A stretch of 64,000 nucleotides of DNA from a bacterium. Its GTDB lineage: Bacteria; Zixibacteria; MSB-5A5; WJJR01. Of this stretch, positions 17,130-40,708 are shown one piece after another. The notes below the pieces were generated by a model that saw nothing but the letters and a program-made list of their open reading frames with translations, was not told the origin of the DNA and searched no databases. Position 1 is the first letter of the stretch; each line of letters opens with the position of its first letter. The stretch lies in contig DATMBC010000017.1 of NCBI GenBank assembly GCA_035559435.1, forward strand, positions 11,848 to 75,847, in the 5' to 3' direction. Position numbers and translations under genes: made by a program.

Positions 17130-20100
17130 CTACTTCCGCTTGTGCTTGCCGTCAGGCGAATGACTGAACCAGGCGGCGGGCACTTCCTGGCGGTGCATCC
17201 CCGGGCCCTCGACCAGCAGTACCAGACCACGTCCCCCCTTCTTCTGGAACATGCGCACCAGCAACGGATAGGTCCCGGCGCGCAGACCGATGGCGCCGCC
17301 GACTTCGCCCATGCCATGCAGACCATCGTTGTCGATGAGCACGGTGTCGGCCAGGGCAAGATCGCTGCCGTCATCGGAGCTGAGGAAAAAGTCATACAGT
17401 CCATCGATCGGGACAGTGATGTAGCCGCGCGCGGTGAGGCCGAATTCCTCTTCCCGCGCAAACGGCGGCAGGGTAACCGAATCGAGAACCGTTTGCCGCG
17501 CGGGCTTCAGGATTGCAAAGTCGGGGAGACTGTCCCAAGTACCTTCAAAATAGTCGCAGGCCAGGCCCGGCGCGGTCTTGGTCACCGTCACCGGCTCCTC
17601 GAAACCCAGAAGCGCATAGGTGGCTTGCGCCACATGCGCGTTGTCGGCTTGGTCCGAGAACGCCCGCGCCTTGACCGTGGTGGTGGCCGTCAGGGTGATG
17701 GGCCCGGCGTACAGCGGAGAAGATTCGGACGGGTCGCTGCCATCGAGCGTGTAGCGGAGTTCGACATCGGGCGACGGACTGGACAGCGAGACGACGAGAC
17801 TGTCGACAAAGGCCGTGCGCGGCGCCGCGATGCGCGCAATGGTCGCGTTGGCCACATCATAGAGCGGAGCCGCCGGGCGAATGTCATCGTAGGCGGCGTC
17901 GGCGGCGGTCATCGCAAAGAGGCGCAAACGCGGATCGTCCGGCAGGGTGATGCGCCGGGCGCCCGGTGACAGCGGCAACCGCGCGTGATACAGGTAGGTG
18001 AACTGATACGCCTCGTTTTCACCGTGCGCGCTGTGACGGTGAGTCCCGTACCAGCCGACCGGCTGGCGCAGGATGTAAGCCGGCGCGATCAGCCCCGGCT
18101 CCTCCACCAGTCGTCCGGCCACCAGACGGCTGTCCCACTGGCCGATGTAGTCGGCATAATCCTGCACCCAGAAACTGGTGTCGCGTCCATCGATCCGGAA
18201 TCTCGCTTCCGCGGGCCCGCCGACACTGGTCAGGAGCAGATGCAAACGGTTGTAATCACCGGCCGGCAGGTTTAATTCCTGACCACGGCAGACGACGACA
18301 TTGAGCGCCCCGGCGGATTTCGGTCCGGTGACAAAAGGAATGTCGTGATCCAGCACCGTGTCTGGCAAAAGTTCGCCAGCAAGAGAGCGTCCGTTGTCGA
18401 AGTCGCCATCCCGACGGTCCGTATCAAGCGAAATCCCATCGAGGTCAAACGGCAATTCAATCGGGTGGCAACGCGGGGGCGCGACCGTCAGGGACTTGGG
18501 CGCGGCAACCCGAATGGCGAAGGCGCGCGGCTGATAGGCGCCCAGCGATGTCGTCAGGACCCCCTCGCGGACAACCGCCTCTCCGAGCGGTTCCTCGGCG
18601 CCGTTGACTTCCCGGGCGGCGACAATCGGGAAGGCGCAACGCACCCGCACATCGGGCGCGGCCAAGCCGGCGGTCTCGCGCAGACGAATCACGATCTCAT
18701 CGCTTCGTTCCGCCGCCTTGACGCAGTTGAGATGCACCGTGCCGGGGCCGGACACAATGCGGCCATCGGAAGAGTAGGTTTCGACTTGGATCAACGCGAA
18801 GGGTGAGCGCGCCCCGGCGTGATTTTCGGTCTGGAAGGCGATCAATGGCTGATTGAAAGCGGCCGCGTGCGCCACCACCGCGCCCTCTCGCCAGTCGCCA
18901 CGATGCCCGATGACCGCAAACGCCACGTGATGAGTGCCGATATCCTGCGATCGCTGATCGCCCACCCAGGACCAGGAGTCATAGACACCGGGTGTGTGAA
19001 TCAATGACAGGCGCACGGTGTGCGAATCCGGGTGATCCCAGCCATAGCGGGAGTCGTTGAGAATCGCGACACCGTAGTCGCCGGTGGTCGAGGTCATGTC
19101 GGCCCACTGCTGACCGGGGACTTCGTAGAGTTTCGGATGATTCAGCCCCCGCTGAATCGTGCCCAGACCGATATCGTAGGTGACATGCTCATTGGGATGG
19201 GCCAGCTGGAAGGCCGCCTTCAGCAGGGTCTCCTTCTCGGCCCAATCAATATCGGCGTCGAACCGGACCATGTCGCCCGCGTCGCCTTCGGCCAGCGAGA
19301 TGGTGGTGCGGAATTCCGACGGGCCCTGACGGCGGGTGATGCGGACGCTGGCGCGCACCGGCCCGTTCTCCATCACTTGCACCTGCGGTTCGCCGCCAAC
19401 GACCGCGCGCGGCGGGGCCTGGATTTCATCGTAGTCGATTTCCCAGCTCGGCCAGGCGTTTGGCTTGTCGAAGAGCAGTTGCCACTCGATCGGGGCGGCG
19501 AGCAACTCGCGCTCGTGGCGCTTGTCAAAGATTGAGGCGACATCGCCGACAGCGTTCAATGTCACTCGGTAGCGGCGATTCTCCAGTGTCGTGGGTGTGG
19601 CGGATGCGCCGGTTGCCGGCAGAGGGGCTGCGGCGGGACGGACATCGTAGACGGCCAGGCCAACCGACGGGACACGTGCCGGGAAAAGAACATGCACCGT
19701 GTCACCGCTTCGCCCCAGCACCTGCGCCGGGACTTCGGCCCCCTGGGGGCCATAGATTCGGACCGCCGACGGCGCGCCGGCCGGGAAATGCACCGCCGCT
19801 TCGACCAAATCCTCGCGCGCAAAACCGACAGGGTTGTACACGACAACCGGCGCACCCTTGGCGCGGGTGTCGAGCACGGGACTGATGGCCTCGATCGCAT
19901 GCTCAAGCATGCCGGCGAATCGGTTCTGCGTGAGGATCTCATCGTTCCAGGAGAATTGGTACGCCTCAGGGATGCTGGTGCCGGTCAGGTCATCATGGAA
20001 CTGGTGCCAGAGGAAGCGCGTCCAGGTCGCTTCCAGCGCCGAGCGCGGGTATTGGATGCCGCCAAACAGCGAGCCGATCACCAGCGCCCGTTCGGCGGCG

Positions 20101-21089
20101 TCGGCGAGCTGTTCATTGCGGCGGTTCCAGCGTTTCATCGCCGCCTGCGAGGTGTAGCAGCCGACCCCGTGACGGGTCATCACCAACTCGCCATTGTAGC
20201 GCGGCAATCTGGTGCGGTCGGCCTGCGCGACGACATCCACGATGTCGCCGGGTGCGATGCTCTTCACCGCCAGTGGGCCATCGGAATCCAGCGAGCGGGC
20301 CAGCTGCGCCACGGAATTGGAGTCGGGCGCGCCGCCGGTGTCGCCGGTGCCGAAATACCGCAGCGCCGCCGCCAGCCCGGAGGATTTGCGCTGCGCCTCG
20401 GCGCGCGCAAGCCAAAGCGTGTCGCGCGTCAGGTCGCCTTCGATCCTGCTGACATACTCGCCCGGATTGACCGCCGCCACCAGCGATGAGCCGTCGACCC
20501 CTTCCCAGACACCGATATCAAACGGCGTCCCGATCCAGGAGCCCCAGGTGAGTTTTTGCGTCGAAAAACTCTTCAGGCCGCAGTGCGCCGCGATCGACGG
20601 CAGCGCGAAACCAAAGCCGAAGCAGTCGGGCAGATAGACGTCGTGGCTTTGGACGCCAAACTCCCGCTTGTAGAATCCGTTGCCATAGAGCGTGTGGCGC
20701 ACCAGGGATTCGAACGACGGCAGATTGACATCGACCGCATCCACCCAACTGCCGGTCACGCGCCACTGGCCGGACCGGATGTACGGCCCCAGACGAGCGT
20801 AGAGGTCGGGGCGGTATTCCCGCAGCAGCTGGTAGCGGAAGGACCCTTCGAAGCTGAAGACATAACCGGGGTAGAGGTCCAGCAACCTGTAGTTGTCGGC
20901 GAAGGTGGCCGGCACATACTCGTTGATCGTCGTGCGGATGTCCCAGCGCCATTGCGTGTCCAGATGCGAGGTTCCGACCACATAGAGCATCGGCTTGTCG
21001 GCCGGTTGGGTCGTGCCCGGCGTCTGCGCGCGCGCCGCCACCGCCGCGACCAGCGCGATCGCCGCCAATGTCATGATCCATCGATTCAT
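17130..21089 (-). CDS. Secreted glycoside hydrolase family 38 (alpha-mannosidase) with C-terminal CHB_HEX_C-like and PA14-like domains
   Basis: Signal peptide MNRWIMTLAAIALVAAVAARA (start 21089, GGAGGGG RBS). GH38 N-domain motif VVGTSHLDTQWRW. Later YTLDGSDPSESSPLYAGPITL (chitobiase C-terminal-like) and GLACDYFEGTWDSLPDF (PA14-like). Confidence 0.8.
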   Translation of the reverse strand: MNRWIMTLAAIALVAAVAARAQTPGTTQPADKPMLYVVGTSHLDTQWRWDIRTTINEYVPATFADNYRLLDLYPGYVFSFEGSFRYQLLREYRPDLYARLGPYIRSGQWRVTGSWVDAVDVNLPSFESLVRHTLYGNGFYKREFGVQSHDVYLPDCFGFGFALPSIAAHCGLKSFSTQKLTWGSWIGTPFDIGVWEGVDGSSLVAAVNPGEYVSRIEGDLTRDTLWLARAEAQRKSSGLAAALRYFGTGDTGGAPDSNSVAQLARSLDSDGPLAVKSIAPGDIVDVVAQADRTRLPRYNGELVMTRHGVGCYTSQAAMKRWNRRNEQLADAAERALVIGSLFGGIQYPRSALEATWTRFLWHQFHDDLTGTSIPEAYQFSWNDEILTQNRFAGMLEHAIEAISPVLDTRAKGAPVVVYNPVGFAREDLVEAAVHFPAGAPSAVRIYGPQGAEVPAQVLGRSGDTVHVLFPARVPSVGLAVYDVRPAAAPLPATGASATPTTLENRRYRVTLNAVGDVASIFDKRHERELLAAPIEWQLLFDKPNAWPSWEIDYDEIQAPPRAVVGGEPQVQVMENGPVRASVRITRRQGPSEFRTTISLAEGDAGDMVRFDADIDWAEKETLLKAAFQLAHPNEHVTYDIGLGTIQRGLNHPKLYEVPGQQWADMTSTTGDYGVAILNDSRYGWDHPDSHTVRLSLIHTPGVYDSWSWVGDQRSQDIGTHHVAFAVIGHRGDWREGAVVAHAAAFNQPLIAFQTENHAGARSPFALIQVETYSSDGRIVSGPGTVHLNCVKAAERSDEIVIRLRETAGLAAPDVRVRCAFPIVAAREVNGAEEPLGEAVVREGVLTTSLGAYQPRAFAIRVAAPKSLTVAPPRCHPIELPFDLDGISLDTDRRDGDFDNGRSLAGELLPDTVLDHDIPFVTGPKSAGALNVVVCRGQELNLPAGDYNRLHLLLTSVGGPAEARFRIDGRDTSFWVQDYADYIGQWDSRLVAGRLVEEPGLIAPAYILRQPVGWYGTHRHSAHGENEAYQFTYLYHARLPLSPGARRITLPDDPRLRLFAMTAADAAYDDIRPAAPLYDVANATIARIAAPRTAFVDSLVVSLSSPSPDVELRYTLDGSDPSESSPLYAGPITLTATTTVKARAFSDQADNAHVAQATYALLGFEEPVTVTKTAPGLACDYFEGTWDSLPDFAILKPARQTVLDSVTLPPFAREEEFGLTARGYITVPIDGLYDFFLSSDDGSDLALADTVLIDNDGLHGMGEVGGAIGLRAGTYPLLVRMFQKKGGRGLVLLVEGPGMHRQEVPAAWFSHSPDGKHKRK

Positions 21090-21117
21090 CTTGATCCCCT
21101 CCAGGGTATGCCGTGCA

Positions 21118-22509
21118 TCAGGATTTGTCGCGCTCGGACGCAACCGTCGGACGGCGCAGAAAGCGCCAGCCGCGCGCCATGCCGCGGTGCTTCAGTTGAT
21201 CGATCAGGACCGCCGCCAGAATGACCAGTCCCAAAACCACCTTTTGCGTGTAGCTCTCGACGTTGGTCAGATTCATGCCGTTCTGGATGACGCCGATGAC
21301 CAGCGCGCCGATCAACGTACCGAGGACTCGTCCCTCGCCGCCGCTGAGACTGGCGCCGCCGACCACGACCGCGGCGATAACATTCAGCTCATAGCCCGCG
21401 CCGTAGGTCGGCGCCCCGCTTTTCAACTGCGACGCCATGATCACGCCGCCCAGCCCTGCCAGCGCGCCGCAGAGGGTGTAGACCGCATACTGGACGCGGT
21501 GGACGCGCACGCCCGCCAAACGCGCCGCTTCCGGATTGCCGCCGACGGCGTAGATGTAACGACCGAAAACGGTGCGCGTCATCACCAGGTGCGCGATCGC
21601 ATAGAGCGCAATCATCAACAAAACCGCGTTCGGAATGCGCAGCAGCGGCTCGGTGCCGCGTCCCAGCCAGATGAAGCCATCGGGAATCTGGTAGAGGGGC
21701 AGCCCCTGCGAGATGATGTAAGCGACTCCGGCGCCGACCTGCATCATCGCCAGCGTGGCGATAAAGGGCGGAATACGAAAACCGGTGATCATCCAGGCGC
21801 TGAACGCGCCCGCCAGCCCGCAGACGACGATCGCGCCCAGCGAGGCGAAGATCATACCGCCGGTGGAGGCGGCGTTCCCGCCCAGGGCTTCGATGAACCA
21901 GGCAGTTAACACCGCCGACAGCGCGATCAGACTGCCCGCCGACAGGTCTATTCCGCCGGCGATGATGACCATGGTCATGCCGATCGCAATGATCGCGATC
22001 ACCGCAATCTGATTGGCGACATTGCGCAGATTGTCGGCCAGAAGAAACGTGGGCCACCGCGACGGCGCCGGCGTTACCAGCGTCAGTGCCGCCGGCTCGG
22101 GCGCGCCCTGACGCAGTCCTTCCAGAATCGACCGCAGGGCCGCCGGCGCGGCGACCACTGCCGCCGACGCGCCCTGCCCCAGTCGCTCACGGATCGCGAA
22201 TGGATCACCCAGAAGGGCACCGGCCACTCTCAGTCCGCGTGATTCCAGCAACGACCGCAAATGCGCGACGAACAGACTGTCCTCATGGGTGGCGCGTCCC
22301 ACGATCAGCACGTCTTGTGCGGAGACATCCCGCGCCGCAAGCGACTCGGCCACCGCCGCGGCGCCGTCGGCGCCGGTCGGGTACTGATCGGCCACGGTGA
22401 GGATGGAGAAAAAGATGCCCAGAATGACGAGCACTCCGAGCATCCCATAATCGCTTAACAGCCCGACCAGACGGCCACGCCAGAGATGTGGAGGGCGAGC
22501 GTTCATCAT
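21118..22509 (-). CDS. Sugar ABC transporter permease (RbsC/AraH branched family) with an unusual ~150-aa insertion after TM1
   Basis: C-terminal 330 aa match the ribose/xylose-type permease core. Start at the MMNARPP ATG (22509), which nearly abuts the ATPase stop (22514). Confidence 0.8.
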   Translation of the reverse strand: MMNARPPHLWRGRLVGLLSDYGMLGVLVILGIFFSILTVADQYPTGADGAAAVAESLAARDVSAQDVLIVGRATHEDSLFVAHLRSLLESRGLRVAGALLGDPFAIRERLGQGASAAVVAAPAALRSILEGLRQGAPEPAALTLVTPAPSRWPTFLLADNLRNVANQIAVIAIIAIGMTMVIIAGGIDLSAGSLIALSAVLTAWFIEALGGNAASTGGMIFASLGAIVVCGLAGAFSAWMITGFRIPPFIATLAMMQVGAGVAYIISQGLPLYQIPDGFIWLGRGTEPLLRIPNAVLLMIALYAIAHLVMTRTVFGRYIYAVGGNPEAARLAGVRVHRVQYAVYTLCGALAGLGGVIMASQLKSGAPTYGAGYELNVIAAVVVGGASLSGGEGRVLGTLIGALVIGVIQNGMNLTNVESYTQKVVLGLVILAAVLIDQLKHRGMARGWRFLRRPTVASERDKS

Positions 22510-22513
22510 CGAA

Positions 22514-23941
22514 TCAGACGGCCAGCGCCATGATGGTTTCGGCGGAAGCCGTTTCGGTGTTGACGATTTCGCCGGCGATCTGACCGCGGCGCATGACCAG
22601 AATACGGTCGCACAATCCGAGCAATTCGGGGAATTCCGAGGAGATGACGACAATCGCCTTCCCCTGCGCCGCCAGCCGGCGAATCAGAAGGTACATCTCG
22701 TGCTTGGCGCCGACATCGATGCCGCGTGTCGGCTCATCGAAGATCAGGACGCGGGCGTTGGTTTCCAGCCAGCGCGCCACCAGGAGCTTCTGTTGATTGC
22801 CGCCCGAAAGGTCCCTTGCCGGTTGCGCCGGCGAACTGAGACGCAGCTTCAACTCGCCCGCCCGCGCGGAAAACCGCGCGCCTTCGCGCCCGCGGTCGAT
22901 CCACCCCGCGCGTGACCACGCGGCCATGTTGCCCAGCGCGAAGTTGCCGAGCGCCGAGAGAGACAGAACCAGTCCCTGCGACTTGCGGTCCTCGGTCAGC
23001 AGGCAAAGACCGGCGGCGATGGCATCGCGGGGGTTTCGTATCCGCGCCGGTCGGCCGTCGATGATGATCTCGCCGGCTGTCATCGGATCGGCGCCGAAGA
23101 CCAGCCGCGCCAATTCGCTGCGTCCGGCGCCGACCAGGCCGCCCAGCCCCAGCACTTCGCCGCGACGGACCGCAAACGAGATGTCGGAGACGCGCGCGCC
23201 GGTCAGGCGGCGCACCTCCAGCGCAATCTCTCCCGGATGCGAGTCACGCGGCGGGAACTCCTCGGCCAGCGACAGCCCGACCATCATCTCAATCAACGTG
23301 TCGCGATCCAGCGCGGCGGTGTCGCGCGACGGCACGGTCTGGCCGTCGCGCATGACGGTGACCCGATCGGAGAATGCGAGGATTTCCTCGAGCCGGTGAC
23401 TGATGAAGATGATGCCGATGCCGCGCGCGGCCAGCTCGCGCAGGATGCCGGCCAGACGGCCCGCCTCATGTGGCGAGAGCGATGCCGTCGGCTCATCGAG
23501 GATGAGAATGCGGGCCTCGCGGATCAACGCGCGCCCGATCTCCACCAGCTGCTGATGCCCGATGCTCAGATCGCGCACCGGGGTCTCCAATGGCAGTTCG
23601 ACGCCCAGCCGGTCGAGCACCGAACGGGCCAGCGCGCGTTCAGCGGCGGCATCGATGAAGCCGCGGCGCGGGGATTCCCGTCCCAGCAACAGGTTCTCGC
23701 GCACCGTGAGCGCGGGAACCAGTGAGAATTCCTGATAGATGGTGGCGATGCCGGCGGCGATGGCGTCGCCGGGGCGCCGGAATTGAATCGGGCGGCCCTC
23801 CAGCCGAATCTCCCCGGCGTCGGCGCTCTGCACACCGGTGATGATCTTGACCAACGTGCTCTTGCCGGCGCCGTTGGCGCCGAGGAGGGCGTGGATTTCC
23901 CCCGCGCGCAATTCAAACCCGGCGCCCCGCAGCGCGACCAC
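22514..23941 (-). CDS. Sugar ABC transporter ATP-binding protein with two fused NBDs (RbsA/MglA-like)
   Basis: Two Walker A motifs (GANGAGKST and GLVGAGRSE) and two LSGG signature motifs (the second as LSGGNQQK). Confidence 0.9.
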   Translation of the reverse strand: MVALRGAGFELRAGEIHALLGANGAGKSTLVKIITGVQSADAGEIRLEGRPIQFRRPGDAIAAGIATIYQEFSLVPALTVRENLLLGRESPRRGFIDAAAERALARSVLDRLGVELPLETPVRDLSIGHQQLVEIGRALIREARILILDEPTASLSPHEAGRLAGILRELAARGIGIIFISHRLEEILAFSDRVTVMRDGQTVPSRDTAALDRDTLIEMMVGLSLAEEFPPRDSHPGEIALEVRRLTGARVSDISFAVRRGEVLGLGGLVGAGRSELARLVFGADPMTAGEIIIDGRPARIRNPRDAIAAGLCLLTEDRKSQGLVLSLSALGNFALGNMAAWSRAGWIDRGREGARFSARAGELKLRLSSPAQPARDLSGGNQQKLLVARWLETNARVLIFDEPTRGIDVGAKHEMYLLIRRLAAQGKAIVVISSEFPELLGLCDRILVMRRGQIAGEIVNTETASAETIMALAV

Positions 23942-24037
23942 GCCGGGGAAGGCCTTGTGGATGCCGGTGGCGCACAGGAGCGGCGCGCCGCTGTCAGCGA
24001 TGGAGGATGAGCCCGTATATGCCTCGCGTGGCCGGCG

Positions 24038-24973
24038 CTACGACGCGCTGGCGGCGGTGAACAGATCGCAGGGCACCAGAACCTGCGGCGCGACGGCGGC
24101 GCCGGAGAAGTAGGCCCGGACCGCCTCGATGGTCTTCTGCCCGATCACGCGCGGCCGCTGGATCACATCGGCAACGATCTTGCCGGCCTGGATCGCCGCG
24201 CGCGCCTCGGGGACGGCATCGAAGCCGACCACACGCACACTGCCGAGTTTGCCCGCCTTTTCGATGGCCGCCAACGCGCCCAGGGCCGAATCGTCATTGA
24301 TGCCAAAGATCCCATTCAGATCGGGATGCGCCTGCAGGATATCCTCGGTGGTTTTCATCGCCTGGTCTTTCATGCCGCGACCGGAGAGCTTGGCGACGAT
24401 GCGCATGCCGGGATGTTTGGCCAGTTCCTCCTCGAAACCGCGCACGCGCTGGATGACCGACTCGACTTCGGGATGGTCGATGATCGCCACGTTCCCATGG
24501 CCGCCGAGCGCCTGCGCCAGCGCCTGAGCGGCCAACGCGCCGCCGGCGACGTTGTCGGAGGCCACATGTGAGACGATCCGCACACCCTCGGCGAGGCAGG
24601 CGATGTCGGCGGTGAAGACCGGAATGCCGGCGTCGTTGGCGGCCTTGACCGCGGTGCCGATCGATTTGGAGTCGCACGGCGCCACGATGATGGCGTCGAC
24701 CTTGCGCACGATGAACTCGCCCAATTGATCCTTCTGGCGCGCGACATCGAACTCGCCGGCGGTGACAATCAGCGTGTAACCCGCCGCCGCGGCCGCGTCG
24801 GTCAAGCCCGCTTCGAGTTCCTGATAGAACGGATGAGTGCGGGTCAGAAGCGAGACGCCGATGGTGAAGTCCTTCTTCGCTTGCGACGACGGTTCGGGAC
24901 CGCTTTTCCCGCAGCCGAGCACCAGGACGACCGCCACAACGGCCGTCAGCAGACCGGAGACCAATGCGCGCAT
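24038..24973 (-). CDS. Sugar ABC transporter periplasmic substrate-binding lipoprotein (RbsB-like type I PBP)
   Basis: Lipobox LVLGC GK at the N-terminus. Periplasmic-binding-protein fold motifs. First gene of the operon transporter-ATPase-permease-GH38. Confidence 0.85.
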   Translation of the reverse strand: MRALVSGLLTAVVAVVLVLGCGKSGPEPSSQAKKDFTIGVSLLTRTHPFYQELEAGLTDAAAAAGYTLIVTAGEFDVARQKDQLGEFIVRKVDAIIVAPCDSKSIGTAVKAANDAGIPVFTADIACLAEGVRIVSHVASDNVAGGALAAQALAQALGGHGNVAIIDHPEVESVIQRVRGFEEELAKHPGMRIVAKLSGRGMKDQAMKTTEDILQAHPDLNGIFGINDDSALGALAAIEKAGKLGSVRVVGFDAVPEARAAIQAGKIVADVIQRPRVIGQKTIEAVRAYFSGAAVAPQVLVPCDLFTAASAS

Positions 24974-25275: not shown

Positions 25276-25680
25276 ATGGAATGCCAATTCCCCAAGCAAG
25301 CTGCATCGCTGGAGTCCATCTTCGAATTTGTCAGCGAATTGGCCAACCGGCACGGCGTATCCGCCGACATCACCCGCGAGATGCAATTCGCCATCGAAGA
25401 GATCTTCACCAACATGGTGCGATACAACACCGAAACGCACAACGATGTGACGATCGATGCCGACGTGGCCGACGGCGTCTTCCGTGTGACGCTGGCCGAC
25501 CGCGACGTGCACTCCTTCGACCCAACGCAGCGTCCGCCGGTGGACACCGAGCGCCCCCCGCACGAACGCACACCCGGCGGCTTGGGAATTCATCTGGTGC
25601 GGCAGATGATGGATGATGTCCGTTACGAGTATGTCGACCGCACCGCGCGCATCACATTGATCAAACGTCTGGAGACCTGA
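25276..25680 (+). CDS. Anti-sigma regulatory factor, serine protein kinase (RsbW/SpoIIAB-like HATPase_c)
   Basis: 134 aa. N-box EEIFTNMVRYN and G-box PGGLGIHLV. Confidence 0.8.
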   Translation: MECQFPKQAASLESIFEFVSELANRHGVSADITREMQFAIEEIFTNMVRYNTETHNDVTIDADVADGVFRVTLADRDVHSFDPTQRPPVDTERPPHERTPGGLGIHLVRQMMDDVRYEYVDRTARITLIKRLET

Positions 25681-25682
25681 CC

Positions 25683-25964
25683 ATGCTCAAGGTTGAACTG
25701 GCCGACAAATCCACCATCGTGCTTACCGGTCGATTCGACGCCTCCCAGGTGTCGCAGGCCGACCCGGTCTTCGACAGTCTGGAGGGCAACAGCGTGCTGG
25801 ACTGCCGGGGCCTGGACTACATCTCCAGCGCTGGCATCGGCGTGGTTCTCGGCGCCTACAAACGATTGCACGAACAGGGGCACACCCTGACCATGATCAA
25901 TGTCAACGACCACATCCGTCAGGTCTTCCGCTATGCGGGCCTGGACAAGATCATCAAGATGTAA
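25683..25964 (+). CDS. STAS-domain anti-sigma-factor antagonist (RsbV/SpoIIAA-like)
   Basis: 93 aa. Conserved phosphorylatable Ser in LDYISSAGIGVVL. 2-nt gap after the kinase gene. Confidence 0.8.
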   Translation: MLKVELADKSTIVLTGRFDASQVSQADPVFDSLEGNSVLDCRGLDYISSAGIGVVLGAYKRLHEQGHTLTMINVNDHIRQVFRYAGLDKIIKM

Positions 25965-26194
25965 GGTTGGCTTTGCCGGAGGCGTCATCTGGTCCGCGGC
26001 GCGGCTCCAATCTCCCTTGCCCCAACCCTGATTTCCTGCTATCCTGAGTTTCACTTGGCTCCGCCGATCCGCCATGAGGCCCCGCGTTGGCTGAGCGTCT
26101 AATGCTTTAAATGACAAGAGGTTAATGCTCGACCGATGATTCGAGTTGCTGAGACCGGATAAAAACAATCGCTTTTGACCAACCTTGCGATCGG

Positions 26195-26752
26195 ATGGCT
26201 GTCATTATGTCGACGTTCGATGACCAGGCACTGGTGAGAAAGTGCCTTGCCGGCGAAACGGAGGCGTTCGGGGAATTGATCGATCGTCACCAACGGGCGC
26301 TGTTCAACACGGCCCTGCGGATGACGGGTGACAGCGAAGAAGCCGCCGACCTGACGCAGAGCGCCTTTGTCAAGGCCTACGAGAAGTTGGACAGTTATCG
26401 ACCCGAGCACAAGTTCTTCAGCTGGATTTATCGGATTCTGGTGAACGAAACCATCAACGCGCTCAAACAGAGGAGACAACAGCAGGGATTGGACATGGAA
26501 CCGGAATCGTCGGACCCGACGCCGGATGAACTGCACGAGACCAATGTCCGCAATCTTCGCATCGAGACGGCCCTGCGCGAGTTGTCCTTCGACTACCGGT
26601 TGGTGATTGTGTTGCGCTACTTCAACGATATGAGCTACCAGGAGATGAGCGAGATTCTCGCCGTGCCGGAGAAGACGGTCAAGTCGCGGCTTTACACGGC
26701 GCGTCAGAATCTGGCAACGATCCTGGGACGGATGGGAGTGGTGACGCCGTGA
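26195..26752 (+). CDS. ECF (group 4) RNA polymerase sigma-70 factor
   Basis: Region 2 (FGELIDRHQRALFNTALRMTGDSEEAADLTQSAFVKAY) and region 4 HTH (YQEMSEILAVPEKTVKSRLYTARQNL). An alternative ATG lies at 26207. Confidence 0.9.
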   Translation: MAVIMSTFDDQALVRKCLAGETEAFGELIDRHQRALFNTALRMTGDSEEAADLTQSAFVKAYEKLDSYRPEHKFFSWIYRILVNETINALKQRRQQQGLDMEPESSDPTPDELHETNVRNLRIETALRELSFDYRLVIVLRYFNDMSYQEMSEILAVPEKTVKSRLYTARQNLATILGRMGVVTP

Positions 26753-27522
26753 TCGAAGAACGTCTCCTGCATCTGATTCACCGGGCGGCCGACAACGCGC
26801 TGTCCGAGCGCGAGCGGACCGAACTCGACCGCCGTCTGCAGGACTCACCCGAGGCGCGCCGGCTGTACGAACAGATTCTCGGATTGAAGGATCTGGCATC
26901 GGCGGTGCCATCGGTGGAGCCGCCGGCCGCGTTGAAGTCGCGCATCCTGGCGCAGATCGATCCGGCGCGGTATCGCCGGCGCACGGCCGATTCGCGGACG
27001 ATCGCCGGCTGGATCGGCCATCTGTGGACGCCGCAACTGGCCTATGGTCTGGCGGCCGGGCTGATCCTCGGCATCGGGGTGGCGACGCTGACCCACAACG
27101 CGAGCGTCGACCCGTTGAACCCGCGGGACCTGTCCGGCACGATCCTGCGGCAGCAGCCATCGACGCTGTCGCGGATCGACGCCGACGCCTTCACCACCGG
27201 CCAGGCGACCGGCCGGCTGGCCGTGGACGCGGGCAATGGACTGACCTATGTCCAGATCGCGTTGGAATCGTCGTTGGAAGTCGCCGTGGTGCTGGAGTTT
27301 GACGAAAGCGCCTTGGTCGCCCGCGCCTACGAGCAACAGCAGCCGCAGGCGGGCAACATCACCGCCGCCCCCGGACGGATCACTGCCACCCACTTGGGAC
27401 AGAATCGCTATCTCTTTGTGCTGGACCAGATTGCCGACACCGACCGGCCGCTGGTCTGCCGCATCGAATCCACCGGGCAGATCTACCAGCGCGAAATCCG
27501 CCTCCCTCGGCAGGGCGATTGA
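26749..27522 (+). CDS. Membrane-spanning ECF anti-sigma factor
   Basis: GTGA overlap with the sigma gene. N-terminal anti-sigma helix region, single TM (LAYGLAAGLILGIGVATL), and a C-terminal extracytoplasmic domain of about 150 aa. Confidence 0.75.
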   Translation: MIEERLLHLIHRAADNALSERERTELDRRLQDSPEARRLYEQILGLKDLASAVPSVEPPAALKSRILAQIDPARYRRRTADSRTIAGWIGHLWTPQLAYGLAAGLILGIGVATLTHNASVDPLNPRDLSGTILRQQPSTLSRIDADAFTTGQATGRLAVDAGNGLTYVQIALESSLEVAVVLEFDESALVARAYEQQQPQAGNITAAPGRITATHLGQNRYLFVLDQIADTDRPLVCRIESTGQIYQREIRLPRQGD

Positions 27523-27542
27523 GCCACCAACCTTTTCCAACC

Positions 27543-27568
27543 GGAATTGTCATTATTACACTTCGAAT
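27543..27568 (+). promoter_or_regulatory. Candidate ECF-type promoter (GGAAT-N16-TCGAA) upstream of the repeat-protein gene
   Basis: aaccGGAATtgtcattattacactTCGAAtgg lies 35-60 nt upstream of the ATG. It resembles the GGAAC-N16-CGAA style of ECF promoters. Inference only. Confidence 0.3.
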
Positions 27569-27602
27569 GGGATTGAGAGCGACAGAAAGCGAGGAAAACG
27601 AA

Positions 27603-28664
27603 ATGGCACAGAACAAGTCGAACGGCACGAAGTTCATCATCATCGGCGGCGTCGCCGTCGTGGCGGTGGTGGCGATCGTGCTTATCTCCGGCGTGTATCC
27701 GCCGGCCAAGGAAGATGTGTCGGGCACGATCGGGGTGGCGGAGCGCTACCGGACCGAGCAAATCACCGACGCGGACGTGAAGATCGAGGACGCGGGCGTG
27801 CAGGCGCTTCTGCAGGACGACGAGGTGATCGCCCTGTTGCAGAGCGCCGAGTTCCAGACGCTGGCCTCCACGCCGGGCGTGATTGAGCTGATGACGAGCC
27901 CGACCTTCGCGGAGCTGGCCAAGTCGCCGGTCTTTGCCGAACTGTCGCGCGATCCGCACTTTGCCGAACTGGCGAAGAGCCCGCAGTACGCCGAACTGAT
28001 GAAGTCGCCGATTTACGTCGACCTGGCCAAGAACCCGCAGATGTTGGAGCTGGCCAAGAGCCCGATCCTGATGGAGCTGGCGAAGGTGCCGACCTACGCC
28101 GAACTCTCCGCCAAGCCCCAGTGGGTGGAGCTGGCCAAGAATCCGCAGATGGCTGAGTTGATCCGCGACCCGAAGTTCGCCGAGCTGGCGCGTGTCCCGA
28201 ACGTCGTCGAGTTGTCGTCCAACCCGCAGTTCGCCGAACTGATGAAACAGCCGCAGTATGCCGAGCTTTCCAAGCAGCCGGCGCTGATCGAACTGGCCAA
28301 GACCCCGCTTCTGATCGAACTGGCCAAAGTTCCGGCCTTCGTCGAGCTGGCCAAGCAGCCGTCGCTGATGGAGCTGGCTTCGCGTCCGGGCATCATGGAA
28401 CTGGCGAAGAACCCGACGCTCGCCGAGCTGGCCCGTCAGCCGCAGTACGCCGAGCTGATCACCAAGCCCGGCTACGCCGAACTGATGAAGTCGCCCAGCT
28501 ACCTCGAGTTGGCCAAGAAGCCGGTCTTCATCGACCTGGCCACCAACCCGAAGTTCGCCGACCTGATGAAGAAGCCGGAATTCATCGACCTGGCCACCAA
28601 TCCCAAGTTCGCCGATCTGGCCAGCAACCCGAAGTTCATGGAGCTGGTCATGCGCTCTGAGTAA
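27603..28664 (+). CDS. Membrane-anchored protein made of about 30 tandem nonapeptide repeats (consensus x-E-L-A-K-x-P-x-[FY]). Function unknown.
   Basis: ATG at 27603 with a GAGGA RBS. N-terminal TM FIIIGGVAVVAVVAIVLISG. From about residue 67 to the C-terminus there are near-perfect 9-aa repeats (FAELAKSPV, FAELSRDPH, FAELAKSPQ, YAELMKSPI ...). The ORF track entry starts at 27519. Confidence 0.8.
   Translation: MAQNKSNGTKFIIIGGVAVVAVVAIVLISGVYPPAKEDVSGTIGVAERYRTEQITDADVKIEDAGVQALLQDDEVIALLQSAEFQTLASTPGVIELMTSPTFAELAKSPVFAELSRDPHFAELAKSPQYAELMKSPIYVDLAKNPQMLELAKSPILMELAKVPTYAELSAKPQWVELAKNPQMAELIRDPKFAELARVPNVVELSSNPQFAELMKQPQYAELSKQPALIELAKTPLLIELAKVPAFVELAKQPSLMELASRPGIMELAKNPTLAELARQPQYAELITKPGYAELMKSPSYLELAKKPVFIDLATNPKFADLMKKPEFIDLATNPKFADLASNPKFMELVMRSE
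27801..28660 (+). repeat. 27-nt tandem coding repeat array (about 30 units) inside the nonapeptide-repeat gene
   Basis: Visible in DNA as reiterated gccgaactggc[c/g]aag...ccg... units with period 27. Translated units keep E2, L3, K5 and P7. Confidence 0.85.
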
Positions 28665-28691
28665 TCGGATTAGGGACGACCCGGAAACCAC

Positions 28692-28733
28692 GGCGGGACG
28701 CGGTCGACATTGACCGCGTCCCGCCTTTCGTTG
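28692..28733 (+). terminator. Rho-independent terminator after the repeat-protein gene
   Basis: Perfect 14-bp inverted repeat ggcgggacgcggtc/gaccgcgtcccgcc, followed by tttcgttgtt. Confidence 0.7.
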
Positions 28734-28747
28734 TTCCTTACCGTCCG

Positions 28748-31690
28748 ATGAAGACTCACCGTGTCCTCTTTCCGCTGGCGGCGCTCCTGATGATCGGGGC
28801 CGCCGCCACGCCCGTGCGGGCCGGTCTGCGCTACATGGAGACCGCCCACCTGCGGCTGGTGTACGTCGATGGCCTCCACTCGTTTCTCGCCCCACACGCG
28901 GTCCGTTGCTTCGAGAATTCCTACAACTTCCACGTGAACCTCTGGGGCCACGAACTGGACGGGAAGACCAATGTCTTCCTGCACGATCTCGGCGATCAGG
29001 CCAACGGCGGGGCCAAGAACATCCCGCGCAACATGATCATCGCCGCCATCGCGCCGTTCAACTACGCCTACGAGACGATGCCCGCCAACGAGCGCATCAA
29101 CACCATCATGAATCACGAGGTGGCGCACCTCTACACGATGGACCGTCCCGGCGCCTGGGACCGCTTCTTCCGCGCCGTCTTCTTCGGCAAGCCGGAGCCG
29201 ATCGCCGAGCAGCCGGTCACCATCCTGTACGACTATCTCACCTCACCGCGGCGCTCGGCGCCGCGCTGGTACCAGGAAGGCATCGCGGTCTTCCTCGAAA
29301 CATGGATGGCGGGCGGGTATGGCCGCGCGTTGGGTTCCTACGATGAAATGGTCTTCCGGACCATGGTCCATGACGGCGCGCGCTTCTACGACCCCGTTGG
29401 CCTTGAGTCGGAGGCCACGCGGAAGGATTTCCACGTCGGCGTCAATTCGTACCTCTACGGCACCCGCTTCATGAGCTACCTGGCGTTGCAGCACGGTCCG
29501 GAGAAGGTGATGGAGTGGGTCAATCGCGCCGCGGGCAGCCGGGCCTACTTCATGGCGCAATTCCGCCGGGTCTTCGGCCAGTCGCTCGACGATGCCTGGC
29601 GCGACTGGATCGCCTATGAACGGGATTTCCAGGCGGCCAATCTGGCGCGGGTGCGCGAATACCCGGTGACGCCCCACCGCGATCTCTCCGACATGGCGCT
29701 GGGCTCGATGTCGCGCGCCTTTCTCGATCCCGCCTCGCGGACCTTGTACGCGGCGGTCAACTACCCGGGACGCATCGCCCACATCGCCGCGATCAACATC
29801 GACGACGGAAAAAGCGAACGGCTCTGCGATGTCAAGGGCGCCTCGCTCTACTACGCCAGCTCGACCGCTTACGACCCCCGGTCGCACACGCTCTTCTACA
29901 CCGCGGACAACTACGGCTGGCGCGACCTGTGCGCCGTCAACACGCAGACCCGCGAACGCCAAACCCTGATGAAGGACGCCCGCATCGGCGACCTGGCCTT
30001 CAACCGCGTCGACAGCTCGCTGTGGGGGGTGCGTCATTTCAACGGCATGTCGACGGTGGTGCGCATCCCGTTTCCCTACCGCGAATGGAAGACGGTCTAC
30101 GCCTGGCCTTACGGGCGGGACATCTATGACCTGGATATCTCGCCCGATGGACGGCTGCTCGCCGCGTCGCTGGCCTATGTCTCAGGGCGGCAGACGCTGA
30201 TCCTGATGCGCACCGATTCCCTGCTGGCCGGCGACACGTCGCACGTCGAGCTGTACGACTTCCACAACACCATCCCGCAGAGTTTCATCTTTTCGGAGGA
30301 TGGCCGCTATCTCTACGGATCCTCGTACTTCACCGGCGTGTCGAACGTCTTCCGTTACGATCTGAAAGTCGACTCGATGGATGCCATGTCCAACGCCGAG
30401 ACGGGATTCTTCCGCCCGCTGCCGGTCGGCGCCGATTCCGCCATTGTGTTCCGCTACACCGCCGCCGGGTTTGTGCCCGCGATGGTCCCGTTGCGTCCCT
30501 TGCAGGACGTGAACGCGATCGACTACTTCGGGCAACAGATTGTGGAGCGGCATCCCGTCGTGACGGAGTGGCTGGCGGGGTCGCCGGGGCGGATCGACGT
30601 GGACTCAGTGGTGATTAAACGCGGGGACTATCGCATCGCCACCAGTTGGAATCTGATGTCGCTCTATCCGGTGGTCGAGGGATTCAAGACCACGACCGCC
30701 GGCGGTCTGCGGCTCAATTTCGCCGACCATCTTGGACTGCATCAGGCCGATCTGACGGTGTCGTATTCGCCGGAAGAAAACCTGCCGCGCGACGAACGCT
30801 GGCATGTCGGCGCGCACTACTCGTATGGCGCCTGGGACGCCCGCTTCACTTACAACAAGGCCGACTTCTACGACCTGTTCGGCCCGACCAAGACCAGCCG
30901 CCGCGGCTACTCCGGCATGCTGGAGCACTCACACTCGCTGCTCTACGACGAGCCGCGGGTGATGGACCTGACCGTCGGCGCCGCCGGGTACTGGGATCTG
31001 GAACGCCTGCCCGATTATCAAAACGTCGCCGCGGCCTTCGACGAACTCTACACCGCCTGGATCGATCTGCACTATGAGAACATGACCACGTCGCTGGGGG
31101 CGGTCGAGCAGGAAAAAGGGATCCAGTGGACGCTCTCTCCCAGCGGGGCCTATGTGAACGACGATTTCTACCCCGCGGCGGTCGGTCGTCTTGACGGTGG
31201 ATTGCCGATCTTGATTCCGCATTCGTCGCTCTGGGTGCGCACGGCCGCCGGCATGGCCCCGGACAAGAAGGACGATCCGTTTGCCAATTTCTATTTCGGC
31301 GGCTTCGGCAACAACTGGGTCGACCACGGTAAGGTGAAGCGCTACCGCGAGTGGTACAGCTTCCCCGGTCTGGCGCTCAACGAGGTCGGGGGCACCAACT
31401 TCGTGCGCGTCATGGCCGATTGGAACCTGCCGCCTCTGCGATTCCGTCGCCTCGGATTCCCGGCGCTTTACTGCGCCTGGGCGCGGGCCTCGATTTTCTC
31501 CTCGGCGCTGGTCACCAATCTTGACGTCTCCGACGCGCGCGTCGAGGTCGGCAACATCGGCGCGCAGCTGGACCTGCAATTCCAACTGCTGTCGCAGTTG
31601 AAACTGACCTTCTCTGTCGGCTACGCCCGCGCTTACCGCAAGGACCGGCGCGGATCAGATGAGACGATGGTCTCGCTGAAGGTCCTATGA
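28748..31690 (+). CDS. Secreted 980-aa protein: N-terminal HExxH (putative zinc-metallopeptidase-like) region, central beta-propeller-like region, C-terminal beta-barrel-like region
   Basis: Signal peptide MKTHRVLFPLAALLMIGAAATPVRA. HEVAH at residues 123-127 with E in QEGIAVFLE about 50 residues later. DISPDGR / SEDGRYLYGSSYF propeller-like blades. C-terminal alternating amphipathic beta strands. ATGA overlap with downstream prsW. Confidence 0.55.
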   Translation: MKTHRVLFPLAALLMIGAAATPVRAGLRYMETAHLRLVYVDGLHSFLAPHAVRCFENSYNFHVNLWGHELDGKTNVFLHDLGDQANGGAKNIPRNMIIAAIAPFNYAYETMPANERINTIMNHEVAHLYTMDRPGAWDRFFRAVFFGKPEPIAEQPVTILYDYLTSPRRSAPRWYQEGIAVFLETWMAGGYGRALGSYDEMVFRTMVHDGARFYDPVGLESEATRKDFHVGVNSYLYGTRFMSYLALQHGPEKVMEWVNRAAGSRAYFMAQFRRVFGQSLDDAWRDWIAYERDFQAANLARVREYPVTPHRDLSDMALGSMSRAFLDPASRTLYAAVNYPGRIAHIAAINIDDGKSERLCDVKGASLYYASSTAYDPRSHTLFYTADNYGWRDLCAVNTQTRERQTLMKDARIGDLAFNRVDSSLWGVRHFNGMSTVVRIPFPYREWKTVYAWPYGRDIYDLDISPDGRLLAASLAYVSGRQTLILMRTDSLLAGDTSHVELYDFHNTIPQSFIFSEDGRYLYGSSYFTGVSNVFRYDLKVDSMDAMSNAETGFFRPLPVGADSAIVFRYTAAGFVPAMVPLRPLQDVNAIDYFGQQIVERHPVVTEWLAGSPGRIDVDSVVIKRGDYRIATSWNLMSLYPVVEGFKTTTAGGLRLNFADHLGLHQADLTVSYSPEENLPRDERWHVGAHYSYGAWDARFTYNKADFYDLFGPTKTSRRGYSGMLEHSHSLLYDEPRVMDLTVGAAGYWDLERLPDYQNVAAAFDELYTAWIDLHYENMTTSLGAVEQEKGIQWTLSPSGAYVNDDFYPAAVGRLDGGLPILIPHSSLWVRTAAGMAPDKKDDPFANFYFGGFGNNWVDHGKVKRYREWYSFPGLALNEVGGTNFVRVMADWNLPPLRFRRLGFPALYCAWARASIFSSALVTNLDVSDARVEVGNIGAQLDLQFQLLSQLKLTFSVGYARAYRKDRRGSDETMVSLKVL

Positions 31691-32691
31691 TCGAACTGCT
31701 CAAGACGGGTGTCAGTCTGTTGCCGGTGCTGATCTTCCTGGCGCTGCTGATCCTGCTGGACAGTTACAAACTGGTCGCCAAGCAACTGGTGGCGGCGACG
31801 ATCGTAGCCGGCGCGGCGGCGGCGGCGCTGTGCGCCCCGGTCAACGCCCTCCTGGTGCAGACTCTCCCCGGCGGCGCTGCGGTCTACTCACGCTACCTGG
31901 CGCCAATCGTCGAGGAGAGCGTCAAGACAATCCCCCTCGTCGTGCTGTTCCGCGGCAACCGTGTCGGCTTCATGGTTGACGCCGCCATCTATGGGTTCGC
32001 GGTCGGCGCGGGGTTCTCGCTGGTGGAGAATGTCTTCTATCTGTTCAGCCTCAAGAGCGCCAATGTGGTGGTGTGGATCATCCGCGGTTTCGGCACCGCC
32101 GCCATGCACGCCGCCACCATGGCGATGCTGGCGGTCATCACCAAGACCCTGATTGATCGCCGCGGCCGTCTTGTCGGGTGGGCGTTCCTCCCCGGCCTGC
32201 TGTTGGCGATCGCCACGCACTCGCTGTTTAATCACTTCATCCTCTCCCCCACCCTGTCCACCGTGCTGCTCATGGTCCTTTTGCCGCTTTTGGTCGTGCT
32301 TGTCTTTCAGCGCAGCGAGAAGGCCACCGAGGAGTGGTTGGGCGTGGGCTTTGACGCCGATCAGGATCTGATGGGTCAGTTGTCCACCGGCGAGTTTTCG
32401 CAGACGCGCATCGGACAGTACCTGCACACCCTGCAGGCGCATTTTCCACCCGCGGTGGTCGTGGATATGTTCTGCCTGTTGCGCATCCGCACCGAGCTGG
32501 CCCTGCGCGCCAAGGGCGTGGTGATGATGCGTCAGGCGGGCATCGATGTGCCCCCCGATCCCGAACTGCGGGAGAAATTCGAAGAGATGGCCTTCCTCGA
32601 ACGCAGCATCGGCAAGACCGGGATGCTGGCCATGCGTCCCTTCCTGCACACCTCCACCCGCGACCTCTGGCAGTTAACCACGATCAAGTAG
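31687..32691 (+). CDS. prsW: PrsW-family intramembrane metalloprotease (anti-sigma factor site-1 protease family)
   Basis: Polytopic membrane protein. Conserved EESVK (EExxK), FxxxH region (MHAATMAM) and HSLFNH motifs of the PrsW/CPBP-related family. Confidence 0.75.
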   Translation: MIELLKTGVSLLPVLIFLALLILLDSYKLVAKQLVAATIVAGAAAAALCAPVNALLVQTLPGGAAVYSRYLAPIVEESVKTIPLVVLFRGNRVGFMVDAAIYGFAVGAGFSLVENVFYLFSLKSANVVVWIIRGFGTAAMHAATMAMLAVITKTLIDRRGRLVGWAFLPGLLLAIATHSLFNHFILSPTLSTVLLMVLLPLLVVLVFQRSEKATEEWLGVGFDADQDLMGQLSTGEFSQTRIGQYLHTLQAHFPPAVVVDMFCLLRIRTELALRAKGVVMMRQAGIDVPPDPELREKFEEMAFLERSIGKTGMLAMRPFLHTSTRDLWQLTTIK

Positions 32692-39501: not shown

Positions 39502-39502
39502 G

Positions 39503-40057
39503 TTAGAGTTTCGGGACAGTAATGCCCTGCTGGCCCTGATATTTCCCCTTCTTGTCGGCGTAAGAGACTTCGCAGTCCTCGTCGGACTCAAAGAAGAGCA
39601 CCTGGGCGATCCCCTCGTTGGCGTAGATGCGCGCCGGCAGGGGCGTGGTGTTGGAAATCTCGAGCGTGACGAATCCCTCCCACTCCGGCTCGAAGGGAGT
39701 CACATTGGTGATGATGCCGCAGCGGGCATAGGTCGATTTGCCGACACAGACGGTCAGCACACGGCGCGGAATGCGGAAGTATTCCACCGAGCGCGCCAGC
39801 GCAAACGAGTTGGGCGGGATCGTGCAGACATCCGCCTGAATCTCCACAAAGGCGTTGGCGTCGAACTGCTTGGGATCAACCACCGTCGTGCGCACGTTGG
39901 TGAACACCTTGAACTCATCGGCCACCCGCATGTCGTAGCCGTACGAGGAGACGCCATAGGAGATCACGCCCTGGCGGACCTGCCGGTCGGCGAAGGGTTC
40001 GATCATGCGATGCTTGAGCGCCATTTCCTTGATCCAGCTGTCCGACTTAATCGACAT
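39503..40057 (-). CDS. dcd: dCTP deaminase
   Basis: 184 aa, dUTPase-like fold. VSSYGYDMR and [13 protein letters not shown] motifs. Confidence 0.9.
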
Positions 40058-40696: not shown

Positions 40697-40708
40697 GTCG
40701 ATCTCCTC

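Follow-up and report, generated by a model that had tools for sequence, protein, structure and literature searches.

Why should a gene for a sigma factor of the extracytoplasmic function (ECF) class stand in one array with the genes of an apparent partner switch, a putative membrane anti-sigma factor, a repeat protein, a large outer-membrane protein and a membrane protease? The question is raised by a locus on a Zixibacteria contig (DATMBC010000017.1, assembly GCA_035559435.1), of which we analysed a stretch of 64,000 nt, hereafter the window, counted from its first letter as position 1. At 25276-32691 seven open reading frames (ORFs), all on the plus strand, encode a putative kinase (g1), a STAS protein (g2), the ECF sigma factor (g3), the putative anti-sigma factor (g4), the repeat protein (g5), a 980-aa outer-membrane protein (g6) and a PrsW-family protease (g7). 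A sequence-only reading of this DNA had listed seven same-strand genes with domains of these kinds, and our ORF check and profile searches (Pfam, NCBIfam) bear out that list, as the gene coordinates do the overlaps it had noted between g3 and g4 (GTGA) and between g6 and g7 (ATGA). The genes it outlined are real, but the starts it had taken for g3 (26195) and g5 (TTG 27519) needed correction. The seven genes are a real, conserved unit, and we tentatively suggest that they form a self-contained envelope-signalling and response module built around the ECF sigma factor.

Conservation of the neighborhood was the test that the sequence-only reading had itself named, and its outcome strongly favors a module. 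We scanned taxa with g6, taking one genome per species, and compared the best 80 loci (L001-L080), all of them from metagenome-assembled genomes (MAGs) or single-amplified genomes, by tblastn of all window proteins. More than 5000 homologs of g6 were found, all of about 980 aa and none with a name. The protein is present in at least 590 species-level genomes, and among the matches listed from these species the identity is at least 48% and every copy is annotated as hypothetical. Its carriers are Ignavibacteria, Bacteroidota (including Rhodothermales and Balneolaceae), Acidobacteriota, Zixibacteria, Eisenbacteria, Calditrichia, KSB1, Latescibacterota, Krumholzibacteria and Fibrobacterota (Fibrobacteraceae). 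Synteny counts leave out L001, an uncultured Ignavibacteria MAG that is 96-99% identical to the window, and so cover 79 loci. Across these the full order kinase, STAS, ECF sigma, anti-sigma, repeat protein, 980-aa protein and PrsW recurs in at least 10 phyla. The PrsW gene lies immediately 3' of g6 on the same strand, frequently overlapping it, in 70 of 74 loci, and in the 45 loci whose upstream flank spans 4.5 kb or more we found an ECF gene in 40, a g5-like gene in 40, a STAS gene in 40 and a kinase gene in 38. The kinase-first order of the partner-switch pair, which the sequence-only reading had remarked upon, is conserved among related loci, and the pair is retained with the cluster even when inverted or when the sigma gene is displaced: it is inverted and still adjacent in Acidobacteriota, and it stays with the cluster in two loci (L057 and L062) where the ECF gene sits 3' of the PrsW gene. 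In many loci the gap between the STAS and ECF genes is only 12-60 bp. All-against-all clustering of flanking ORFs yielded no further universally conserved neighbor, and the group that it numbered cluster 6 mixes, through single linkage, kinases, GAF-PP2C proteins and receiver domains. These counts rule out chance adjacency of the seven genes, and since the order recurs across phyla we take the locus to be a functional module.

What holds the module together at the level of transcription is suggested by a promoter motif. Immediately 5' of the sigma start codon, related loci share the conserved motif aCCAACtTTt-N11-tTGTAtTT. We built a position weight matrix (PWM) from 32 of these sigma-gene sites, termed P1, and scanned both strands with it; a second set of sites, termed P2 and lying before g5, was outside the training set. 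The window holds exactly 2 PWM matches in 64 kb, where 0.03 would be expected. One is P1 (26177-26207, plus strand), with CCAAC at 26179-26183, a 16-nt spacer and TGTC at 26200-26203, which abuts the sigma start codon and has a PWM score of 21.8. The other is P2 (27525-27555, plus strand), directly 3' of the g4 stop codon, with CCAAC at 27527-27531, again a 16-nt spacer and TGTC at 27548-27551; its PWM score of 29.1 is the best in the window. In the related loci (1.29 Mb) there are 72 matches as against 0.8 in shuffled sequences, and none lies on the minus (non-coding) strand: 41 are at P1, 29 at P2, one is a mislabelled P1 and one lies elsewhere. An ECF-type promoter motif before the sigma factor's own operon, the arrangement looked for as a sign of ECF autoregulation, is thus found at P1 in the window and in 41 loci. 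The promoter consensus of Bacillus subtilis sigma-W is TGAAAC-N16-CGTA, and CCAAC-N16-TGTA fits the general ECF skeleton AAC-N16-(C/T)GT. We also considered P1 as a Bacteroidetes sigma-A promoter of the -33/-7 type and rejected this, as the conserved CCAAC-N16-TGTA fits the ECF skeleton. Judged from these motifs, the sigma factor most probably drives its own operon together with g5, g6 and g7, and whatever part g5-g7 may have in regulating the sigma factor, the P2 motif before g5 implies that they are probably its outputs as well. The PWM scan detected no ECF-type motif upstream of g1 in the window. The one match away from the standard positions, at 4879 in L019, is found upstream of a gene for a GAF-SpoIIE phosphatase (5527-6816), with the kinase and STAS genes following it; in that locus the partner switch may be controlled by the module's sigma factor.

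The motifs also bear on the gene starts. For the sigma gene the start is probably ATG 26207 rather than 26195, because ATG 26207 aligns with the TGTAyTTATG that is conserved in orthologous loci; g3 would then run from 26207 to 26752, with the start at 26195 possible and less likely. The TTG at 27519 is almost certainly not the start of g5, since the conserved promoter motif occupies 27525-27555. The likely start is ATG 27603, which has GAGGAG just before it and gives a protein of 353 aa (27603-28664); ATG 27567 is possibly an alternative.

The sigma factor itself is readily placed. Pfam detects Sigma70_r2 (E = 1e-17) and r4_2 (E = 1e-15) in g3 with no match to region 3, and its score against TIGR02937 is 123.2 bits (cutoff 42.9), which makes it an ECF (group 4) sigma factor. 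Among solved structures the closest is that of B. subtilis SigW (5wuq, E = 6e-24). Scores remain below the SigW equivalog cutoffs (NF007223, 124.9 against 209; TIGR02948, 115 against 243), and as g7 likewise fails the PrsW equivalog cutoff, both proteins are relatives and not orthologs of their Bacillus counterparts. The start of g4 (26749-27522, plus strand, 257 aa) overlaps the sigma stop codon, and proteins of about 250-265 aa occupy the equivalent position in orthologous loci. Matches of g4 to known anti-sigma families are weak (NF052375, E = 1e-11 and 45 bits against a cutoff of 100; RskA_N, E = 0.015), and it has no zinc motif. It carries a putative N-terminal anti-sigma domain, one transmembrane (TM) segment, the residues SGTIL and a beta-rich periplasmic domain of about 130 aa, so that by sequence it is a putative single-pass membrane anti-sigma factor that would bind g3.

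A short stretch just beyond the membrane ties g4 to the repeat protein encoded next to it. A GT[IMLV] motif 8-14 residues past the TM segment is common to stand-alone g4 and to g5: it is present in 26 of 32 g4 proteins (1.8 expected from shuffles) and in 20 of 25 g5 proteins (0.3 expected), reading DLSGTIL in g4 and DVSGTIG in g5 of the window. From this common motif g5 appears to be an anti-sigma-like membrane protein that lacks the sigma-binding domain. In many genomes the two are physically joined. Acidobacteriota and several Ignavibacteria and Bacteroidota loci have the anti-sigma domain fused in frame to a g5-type TM segment, module and repeats, the motif is again present in 9 of 12 such fused proteins (0.1 expected), and loci with the fusion have no separate g4-type protein. 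About one fifth of the top 150 members of the g5 family carry an N-terminal extension, and 8 of 10 extensions tested match the same anti-sigma model as g4 of the window. The suggestion of the sequence-only reading that the repeat protein might act as a scaffold or decoy gains support from the TM-proximal motif that it has in common with the anti-sigma factor and from these fusions. Four fused Acidobacteriota genes (L042 8879, L052 8854, L056 3035 and L069 3236) keep the P2 motif inside the ORF, in the linker that precedes both the TM segment and an internal Met. Each of these genes could therefore give rise to two products, the full-length anti-sigma factor and a shorter isoform that lacks the sigma-binding domain.

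Profile searches of Pfam and NCBIfam gave no family match for g5. A word-indexed homolog search, in which composition bias intervened, returned 0 matches for its N-terminal module and 2 for the full-length protein, and a full HMMER scan placed the N-module family at 733 clusters at 50% identity. The protein is predicted to be a periplasmic repeat protein anchored in the inner membrane, with a short cytoplasmic tail, a TM segment, a module of the form GTIG..RY..EQI..DV and 30 nonapeptides (nt 27843-28652). The 30 units, xP.[FYLM].[ED]L.., follow one another uninterrupted and without a single indel, so that proline recurs every 9 residues at positions 118-370 of the ORF that begins at TTG. An AlphaFold2 (AF2) model of the single sequence suggests one short helix per 9-mer, at low confidence (predicted local distance difference test, pLDDT, 64). 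Orthologs have the same plan of short cytoplasmic tail, one TM segment and a periplasmic module of about 60 aa, PP..GTIG..KY..EQ...DV.L....Q.LLQ.D, followed by lineage-specific repeats that are hypervariable, mostly 9-mers of differing sequence with 11-, 27- and about 60-residue units as well. In two Eisenbacteria loci (L020 8911-9888 and L037 8755-9915) the orthologs carry about 15-20 tandem 11-mers, LPDADGGR(Q/R)(I/T)(K/T), rather than helical 9-mers, and units of 27 residues (L021) and about 60 residues (L080) stand behind the same conserved N-module. Downstream of g5, a hairpin at 28692-28725 (plus strand) in the spacer before g6, formed by a 15-bp G+C-rich stem and followed by TTTCGTTGTT, is a candidate terminator or attenuator. 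Strong G+C-rich hairpins (12-17 bp; -18 to -40 kcal/mol) lie in this spacer in 27 of 27 loci examined, followed by a T-run in 14 of the 27; the structure is kept across loci and the sequence is not. This arrangement suggests that g5 is probably produced in excess over g6 and g7.

The last gene, g7 (31687-32691, plus strand, 334 aa), belongs to the PrsW protease family (PF13367, E = 1e-20, 74.4 bits against a cutoff of 23.5). In 69 orthologs its motifs EE..K, GFGTA.mHG and H..fNH are conserved, and so is its cytoplasmic C-terminal domain (about 130 aa), which B. subtilis PrsW lacks. Against the PrsW equivalog NF033739 it scores 35.6 (cutoff 225), which places it outside PrsW in the strict sense. 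In the sigma-W system of Bacillus, PrsW cleaves the anti-sigma factor RsiW at site 1, and to our knowledge site-1 cleavage of an anti-sigma factor is the only role characterized for PrsW.

For g6 (28748-31690, plus strand) the profile search found no Pfam family. An AF2 model built on 80 homologs (pLDDT 89.5; predicted template modelling score 0.88) divides the protein into a signal peptide (1-25), an alpha/beta plus helical, gluzincin-like domain with an HExxH motif (about 27-302), a TolB-like beta-propeller (about 319-581) and a 16-stranded barrel of the Omp85 type (about 635-980). The HExxH residues H123, E124 and H127 are invariant in 80 sequences, and so is W174..E177-G178-x-A180, which resembles the third-ligand motif 'NEGFA' of M1 peptidases. 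Propellers and barrels make up most of the top fold matches, and no peptidase is among these. The barrel has no sequence-level match to the Pfam Omp85 models and g6 no match to Pfam POTRA; in the model the region before the barrel consists of the propeller and a short helical linker. Of the two features by which Omp85 proteins are recognized g6 thus has one and lacks the other, POTRA, and this lack fits the non-POTRA 'WD40-like Omp85' subfamily that Heinz and Lithgow catalogued in 2014 (PMC4104836). That subfamily combines an aminopeptidase-like domain, a TolB-like propeller and an Omp85 barrel, aminopeptidase matches have been reported for it, and it is listed in Ignavibacterium, Melioribacter, Rhodothermus, Caldithrix, Salinibacter and others (Table S3, PMC4104836); in 2024 it was still called not well characterized (PMC11116518). 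Matched by its modelled architecture, g6 is an Omp85-family outer-membrane protein of this subfamily. The sequence-only reading had described a secreted HExxH, propeller and barrel protein: signal peptide, HExxH motif, propeller and barrel all stand, but the protein is predicted to be an outer-membrane protein of the Omp85 family and not a free secreted protease.

At the other end of the locus, g1 (25276-25680, plus strand, 134 aa) matches Pfam HATPase_c_2 (E = 4e-23), with RsbW 6m36 as its best solved relative (E = 1e-7). The N-box residues E..N, the Asp of the G1 box and the GGLG of the G2 box are conserved in 46 orthologs; the G1 box is degenerate (D-R-D-V-H-S-F), and the score against the RsbW equivalog is 42 (cutoff 145). 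We regard g1 from its sequence as a putative serine kinase, or anti-sigma-type HATPase, of the RsbW/SpoIIAB kind. The single-domain protein g2 (25683-25964, plus strand, 93 aa) matches Pfam STAS_2 (E = 2e-13, 50.6 against a cutoff of 29.2) and reaches 53.4 bits against TIGR00377, just under the cutoff of 53.45. The phosphorylatable Ser lies in the stretch YISSAGLG, whose conservation over 55 sequences is 90% or higher, as fits a STAS anti-sigma antagonist. A complete partner-switching module would also include a phosphatase, and no SpoIIE-domain or PP2C gene was found in the 64-kb window; within 10 kb of the cluster such a GAF-SpoIIE (PP2C) gene is present in 21 of 80 loci, either just upstream of the kinase gene or just after the PrsW gene. 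RsbW-type proteins classically bind group 3 sigma factors. In the window g2 and g3 are separated by 230 bp with an apparently separate promoter region. Two loci have an arrangement of their own: GAF-PP2C, STAS and kinase genes lie divergently beside g5-g6-g7 (L008 6848-9851; L010 1-1823), without an ECF sigma gene within reach, and the PWM for the promoter motif has no match there. In several loci a gene for a single-domain response regulator of about 145 aa, consisting of a receiver domain, lies directly 3' of the PrsW gene (L012 14212-14652, L020 14201-14641, L035 12867-13307, L037, L046, L027 and L064); no such gene was found in the window.

How might these parts work together? We tentatively favor the following scheme, to the whole of which we assign a substantial but not a prevailing probability. 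The sigma factor would recognize P1 and P2, thereby regulating itself and inducing g5-g7, and g5 would be made in excess because of the hairpin. The anti-sigma factor g4, or the fused g4/g5 protein, would hold the sigma factor at the membrane until regulated proteolysis, beginning at or near the common GT[IML] site, sets it free. The likeliest enzyme for site 1 would be PrsW, which has this role for RsiW in Bacillus, and the periplasmic peptidase and propeller of g6 would bind or trim the periplasmic part; proteolysis of the anti-sigma factor by PrsW or by the HExxH protein is plausible. That SigW, whose anti-sigma factor is cut by PrsW, is the closest solved relative of g3 counts in favor of this scheme. 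Having the same site and no sigma-binding domain, g5 could compete as a substrate or link the inner membrane to g6, and would in this way feed back on signalling. A cytoplasmic phospho-switch made up of the RsbW-like kinase, the STAS protein and a PP2C phosphatase would come in addition; its target would be either the sigma factor or PrsW's cytoplasmic domain.

Several points weigh against this scheme. P1 and P2 are predictions from a motif, and at P1 the ATG follows TGTAyTT by only 3 nt, which means either that the mRNA is leaderless or nearly so or that the motif must be read differently. A PrsW that depends on the sigma factor would give pure positive feedback, which is unusual, and no site-2 protease gene lies within the module. 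The fused proteins lack the periplasmic domain of g4, so that this domain cannot be a universal sensor. As L008 and L010 keep the kinase/STAS pair together with g5-g6-g7 and have no adjacent ECF gene, the partner switch may target the g5-g7 machinery and not the sigma factor. Finally, the side of the membrane on which the soluble domains of g6 lie, periplasm or cell surface, is predicted from other Omp85 proteins including PlpD, whose non-POTRA N-terminal domain has been shown to be periplasmic (PMC11116518).

The same genes could instead encode an export or assembly machine whose regulation is coupled to secretion. On this account g5 is an abundant cargo that docks through its N-module on the propeller of g6, PrsW detaches it from the membrane by a cut at the conserved site, and g6 translocates, assembles or processes the variable repeats in the manner of TpsB/TpsA or TamA/TamB; because the anti-sigma factor either bears this site too or forms one protein with the cargo, the load of the machine would be reflected in sigma activity, as with FlgM or Bordetella BtrA, and the partner switch would gate not the sigma factor but the machine, as in the case of BtrU/W/V. 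All Omp85 proteins so far characterized assemble or translocate proteins (PMC11116518), the Bordetella btr locus supplies a precedent (PMC7498569), and a hairpin after g5 is what one would expect of an abundant substrate followed by low-abundance machinery. The translational coupling of g6 and g7, the lineage-specific 9-, 11-, 27- and about 60-residue repeats that vary so strongly behind a conserved N-module, and the kinase/STAS pair that stays with g5-g7 where no ECF gene is adjacent would also suit such a machine. However, g6 has no POTRA and a barrel without sequence-level match to Pfam Omp85 models, no recognizable TPS domain is present, the intact peptidase site of g6 suggests degradation or processing instead of transport, and nothing indicates that g5 leaves the periplasm; we consider this account rather doubtful. 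A similarly low probability goes to a trans-envelope proteolytic machine for signalling or export in which g6 and g7 process the repeat protein, which would be the anti-sigma factor itself or its paralog, and in which the phospho-switch acts through the cytoplasmic domain of PrsW and not on the sigma factor.

A simpler possibility is that the anti-sigma factor senses the signal through its own periplasmic domain with the help of generic proteases encoded elsewhere, and that g5-g7 are only effectors of envelope repair, for example quality-control proteases like BepA of the Escherichia coli sigma-E regulon, with no role in sigma control. It would account for P2, which puts g5-g7 under the sigma factor, for the frequent placing of ECF operons beside their main targets and for the beta-rich periplasmic domain of about 130 aa that g4 possesses. 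We nevertheless think it unlikely, given that many genomes have the anti-sigma domain and the g5 module in one fused protein and that GT[IML] is common to g4 and g5, both of which tie g5 directly to sigma control, and given the sole role characterized for PrsW. It is also conceivable that the kinase/STAS pair is an unrelated neighbor that controls another sigma factor or process elsewhere, as the 230-bp gap with its apparently separate promoter region, the lack of an ECF-type motif upstream of g1 in the window and the usual binding of RsbW-type proteins to group 3 sigma factors might suggest. But the pair keeps its adjacency in 38-40 of 45 loci across phyla, in co-directional and divergent arrangements alike, with a gap to the ECF gene of 12-60 bp in many of them, which leaves this idea highly improbable.

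Each part of the module is of a known kind (ECF sigma and anti-sigma, PrsW, RsbW/RsbV-type proteins, Omp85), and comparison with better-known systems shows where the combination departs from them. The sigma-W/RsiW/PrsW/RasP system of B. subtilis is alike in its ECF sigma factor, SigW being the closest solved relative here, in its single-pass membrane anti-sigma factor, with g4 as the putative counterpart here, in a PrsW-family protease with its catalytic motifs and in a promoter consensus that the skeleton AAC-N16-(C/T)GTA of our loci resembles. In Bacillus prsW is not linked to sigW, whereas here it is linked and apparently sigma-dependent, and its product carries the extra cytoplasmic domain of about 130 aa. 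Our module further differs in belonging to a diderm with an Omp85 partner, in an anti-sigma factor without a zinc motif, in the attached partner-switch pair and in having no RasP gene, and both the sigma factor (125 against 209) and PrsW (36 against 225) fall short of the equivalog cutoffs. E. coli sigma-E/RseA/DegS/RseP likewise has an ECF sigma factor, with a -35 element of the AACTT type, a membrane anti-sigma factor that is proteolysed, as is plausible for g4, and induced quality-control proteases of the periplasm and outer membrane. Its site-1 protease, however, is the PDZ serine protease DegS, it has neither partner switch nor repeat protein, and BepA is a soluble M48 protease and not part of an Omp85 protein. 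TamA/TamB and TpsB/TpsA also pair an Omp85 barrel with a partner whose N-terminal signal anchor is joined to a long, repetitive region, periplasmic or exported, but POTRA, DUF490 and TPS domains are absent here, g5 consists of helical 9-mer repeats, and g6 carries a peptidase domain and a propeller.

Another of the closest known systems is the Bordetella btr locus, where the ECF sigma factor BtrS is encoded beside an RsbU/RsbW/RsbV-type set (BtrU, BtrW and BtrV); there the anti-sigma factor BtrA is exported as a substrate of the very machine that the sigma factor controls, and the partner switch acts on the machine and not on the sigma factor (PMC7498569). In that proteobacterial, host-associated system, by contrast with ours, the machine is a type III secretion system, BtrA is soluble, and there is no PrsW, Omp85 or repeat protein. 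The sequence-only reading had held that the arrangement matches no known ECF system; we did not find the full combination described, but an ECF sigma factor beside RsbU/V/W-type proteins is known from btr (PMC7498569). In the searchable literature, supplementary descriptions of ECF groups excepted, we found no description of a cluster of ECF, PrsW and STAS genes, be it in Bacteroidetes or in connection with the outer membrane, and the main text of the ECF classification (PMC7826278) makes no mention of PrsW, STAS or RsbW. Nor did we find there any link of WD40-like Omp85 proteins to an ECF sigma factor, PrsW or a partner switch: the report with which g6 agrees in architecture and in part of its taxa only catalogues the subfamily and assigns it neither function nor gene context (PMC4104836).

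The flanks of the locus, which consist of unrelated genes, help to delimit it. Upstream lie a divergent sugar ABC transporter (21118-24973) and, adjoining it, a 1337-aa GH38 alpha-mannosidase with CHB_HEX_C, Fn3-associated and PA14 domains (17130-21143, minus strand); downstream are carA and carB. The sugar ABC transporter and carA/carB are not co-conserved with the module and therefore mark its borders. Further downstream the window contains a second non-canonical member of the Omp85 superfamily, a PlpD-like ORF of 812 aa with patatin, POTRA and Omp85 domains (42858-45296, plus strand) that appears unrelated to the module. An ORF of 469 aa (39323-40732, plus strand) has no Pfam match at E 1e-5 and partly overlaps a pantoate ligase gene on the opposite strand, so that it may not be a real gene.

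These findings give a regulatory and genetic context to the WD40-like Omp85 subfamily, listed as uncharacterized since 2014, and for a so far unstudied ECF sigma factor they predict both the promoter and a minimal regulon. They offer a second setting, in diderms, in which to study site-1 proteolysis of the PrsW type, and show an ECF sigma factor in widespread association with an RsbW/RsbV/PP2C switch. That anti-sigma factor and repeat protein occur both fused and split amounts to a natural experiment in the evolution of anti-sigma factors and of decoy or cargo proteins from one another, in a module that is widespread in poorly studied phyla. Should the trans-envelope machine gated through PrsW prove to be the true reading, it would provide the first function for the WD40-like Omp85 subfamily and the first partner switch that controls a membrane protease.

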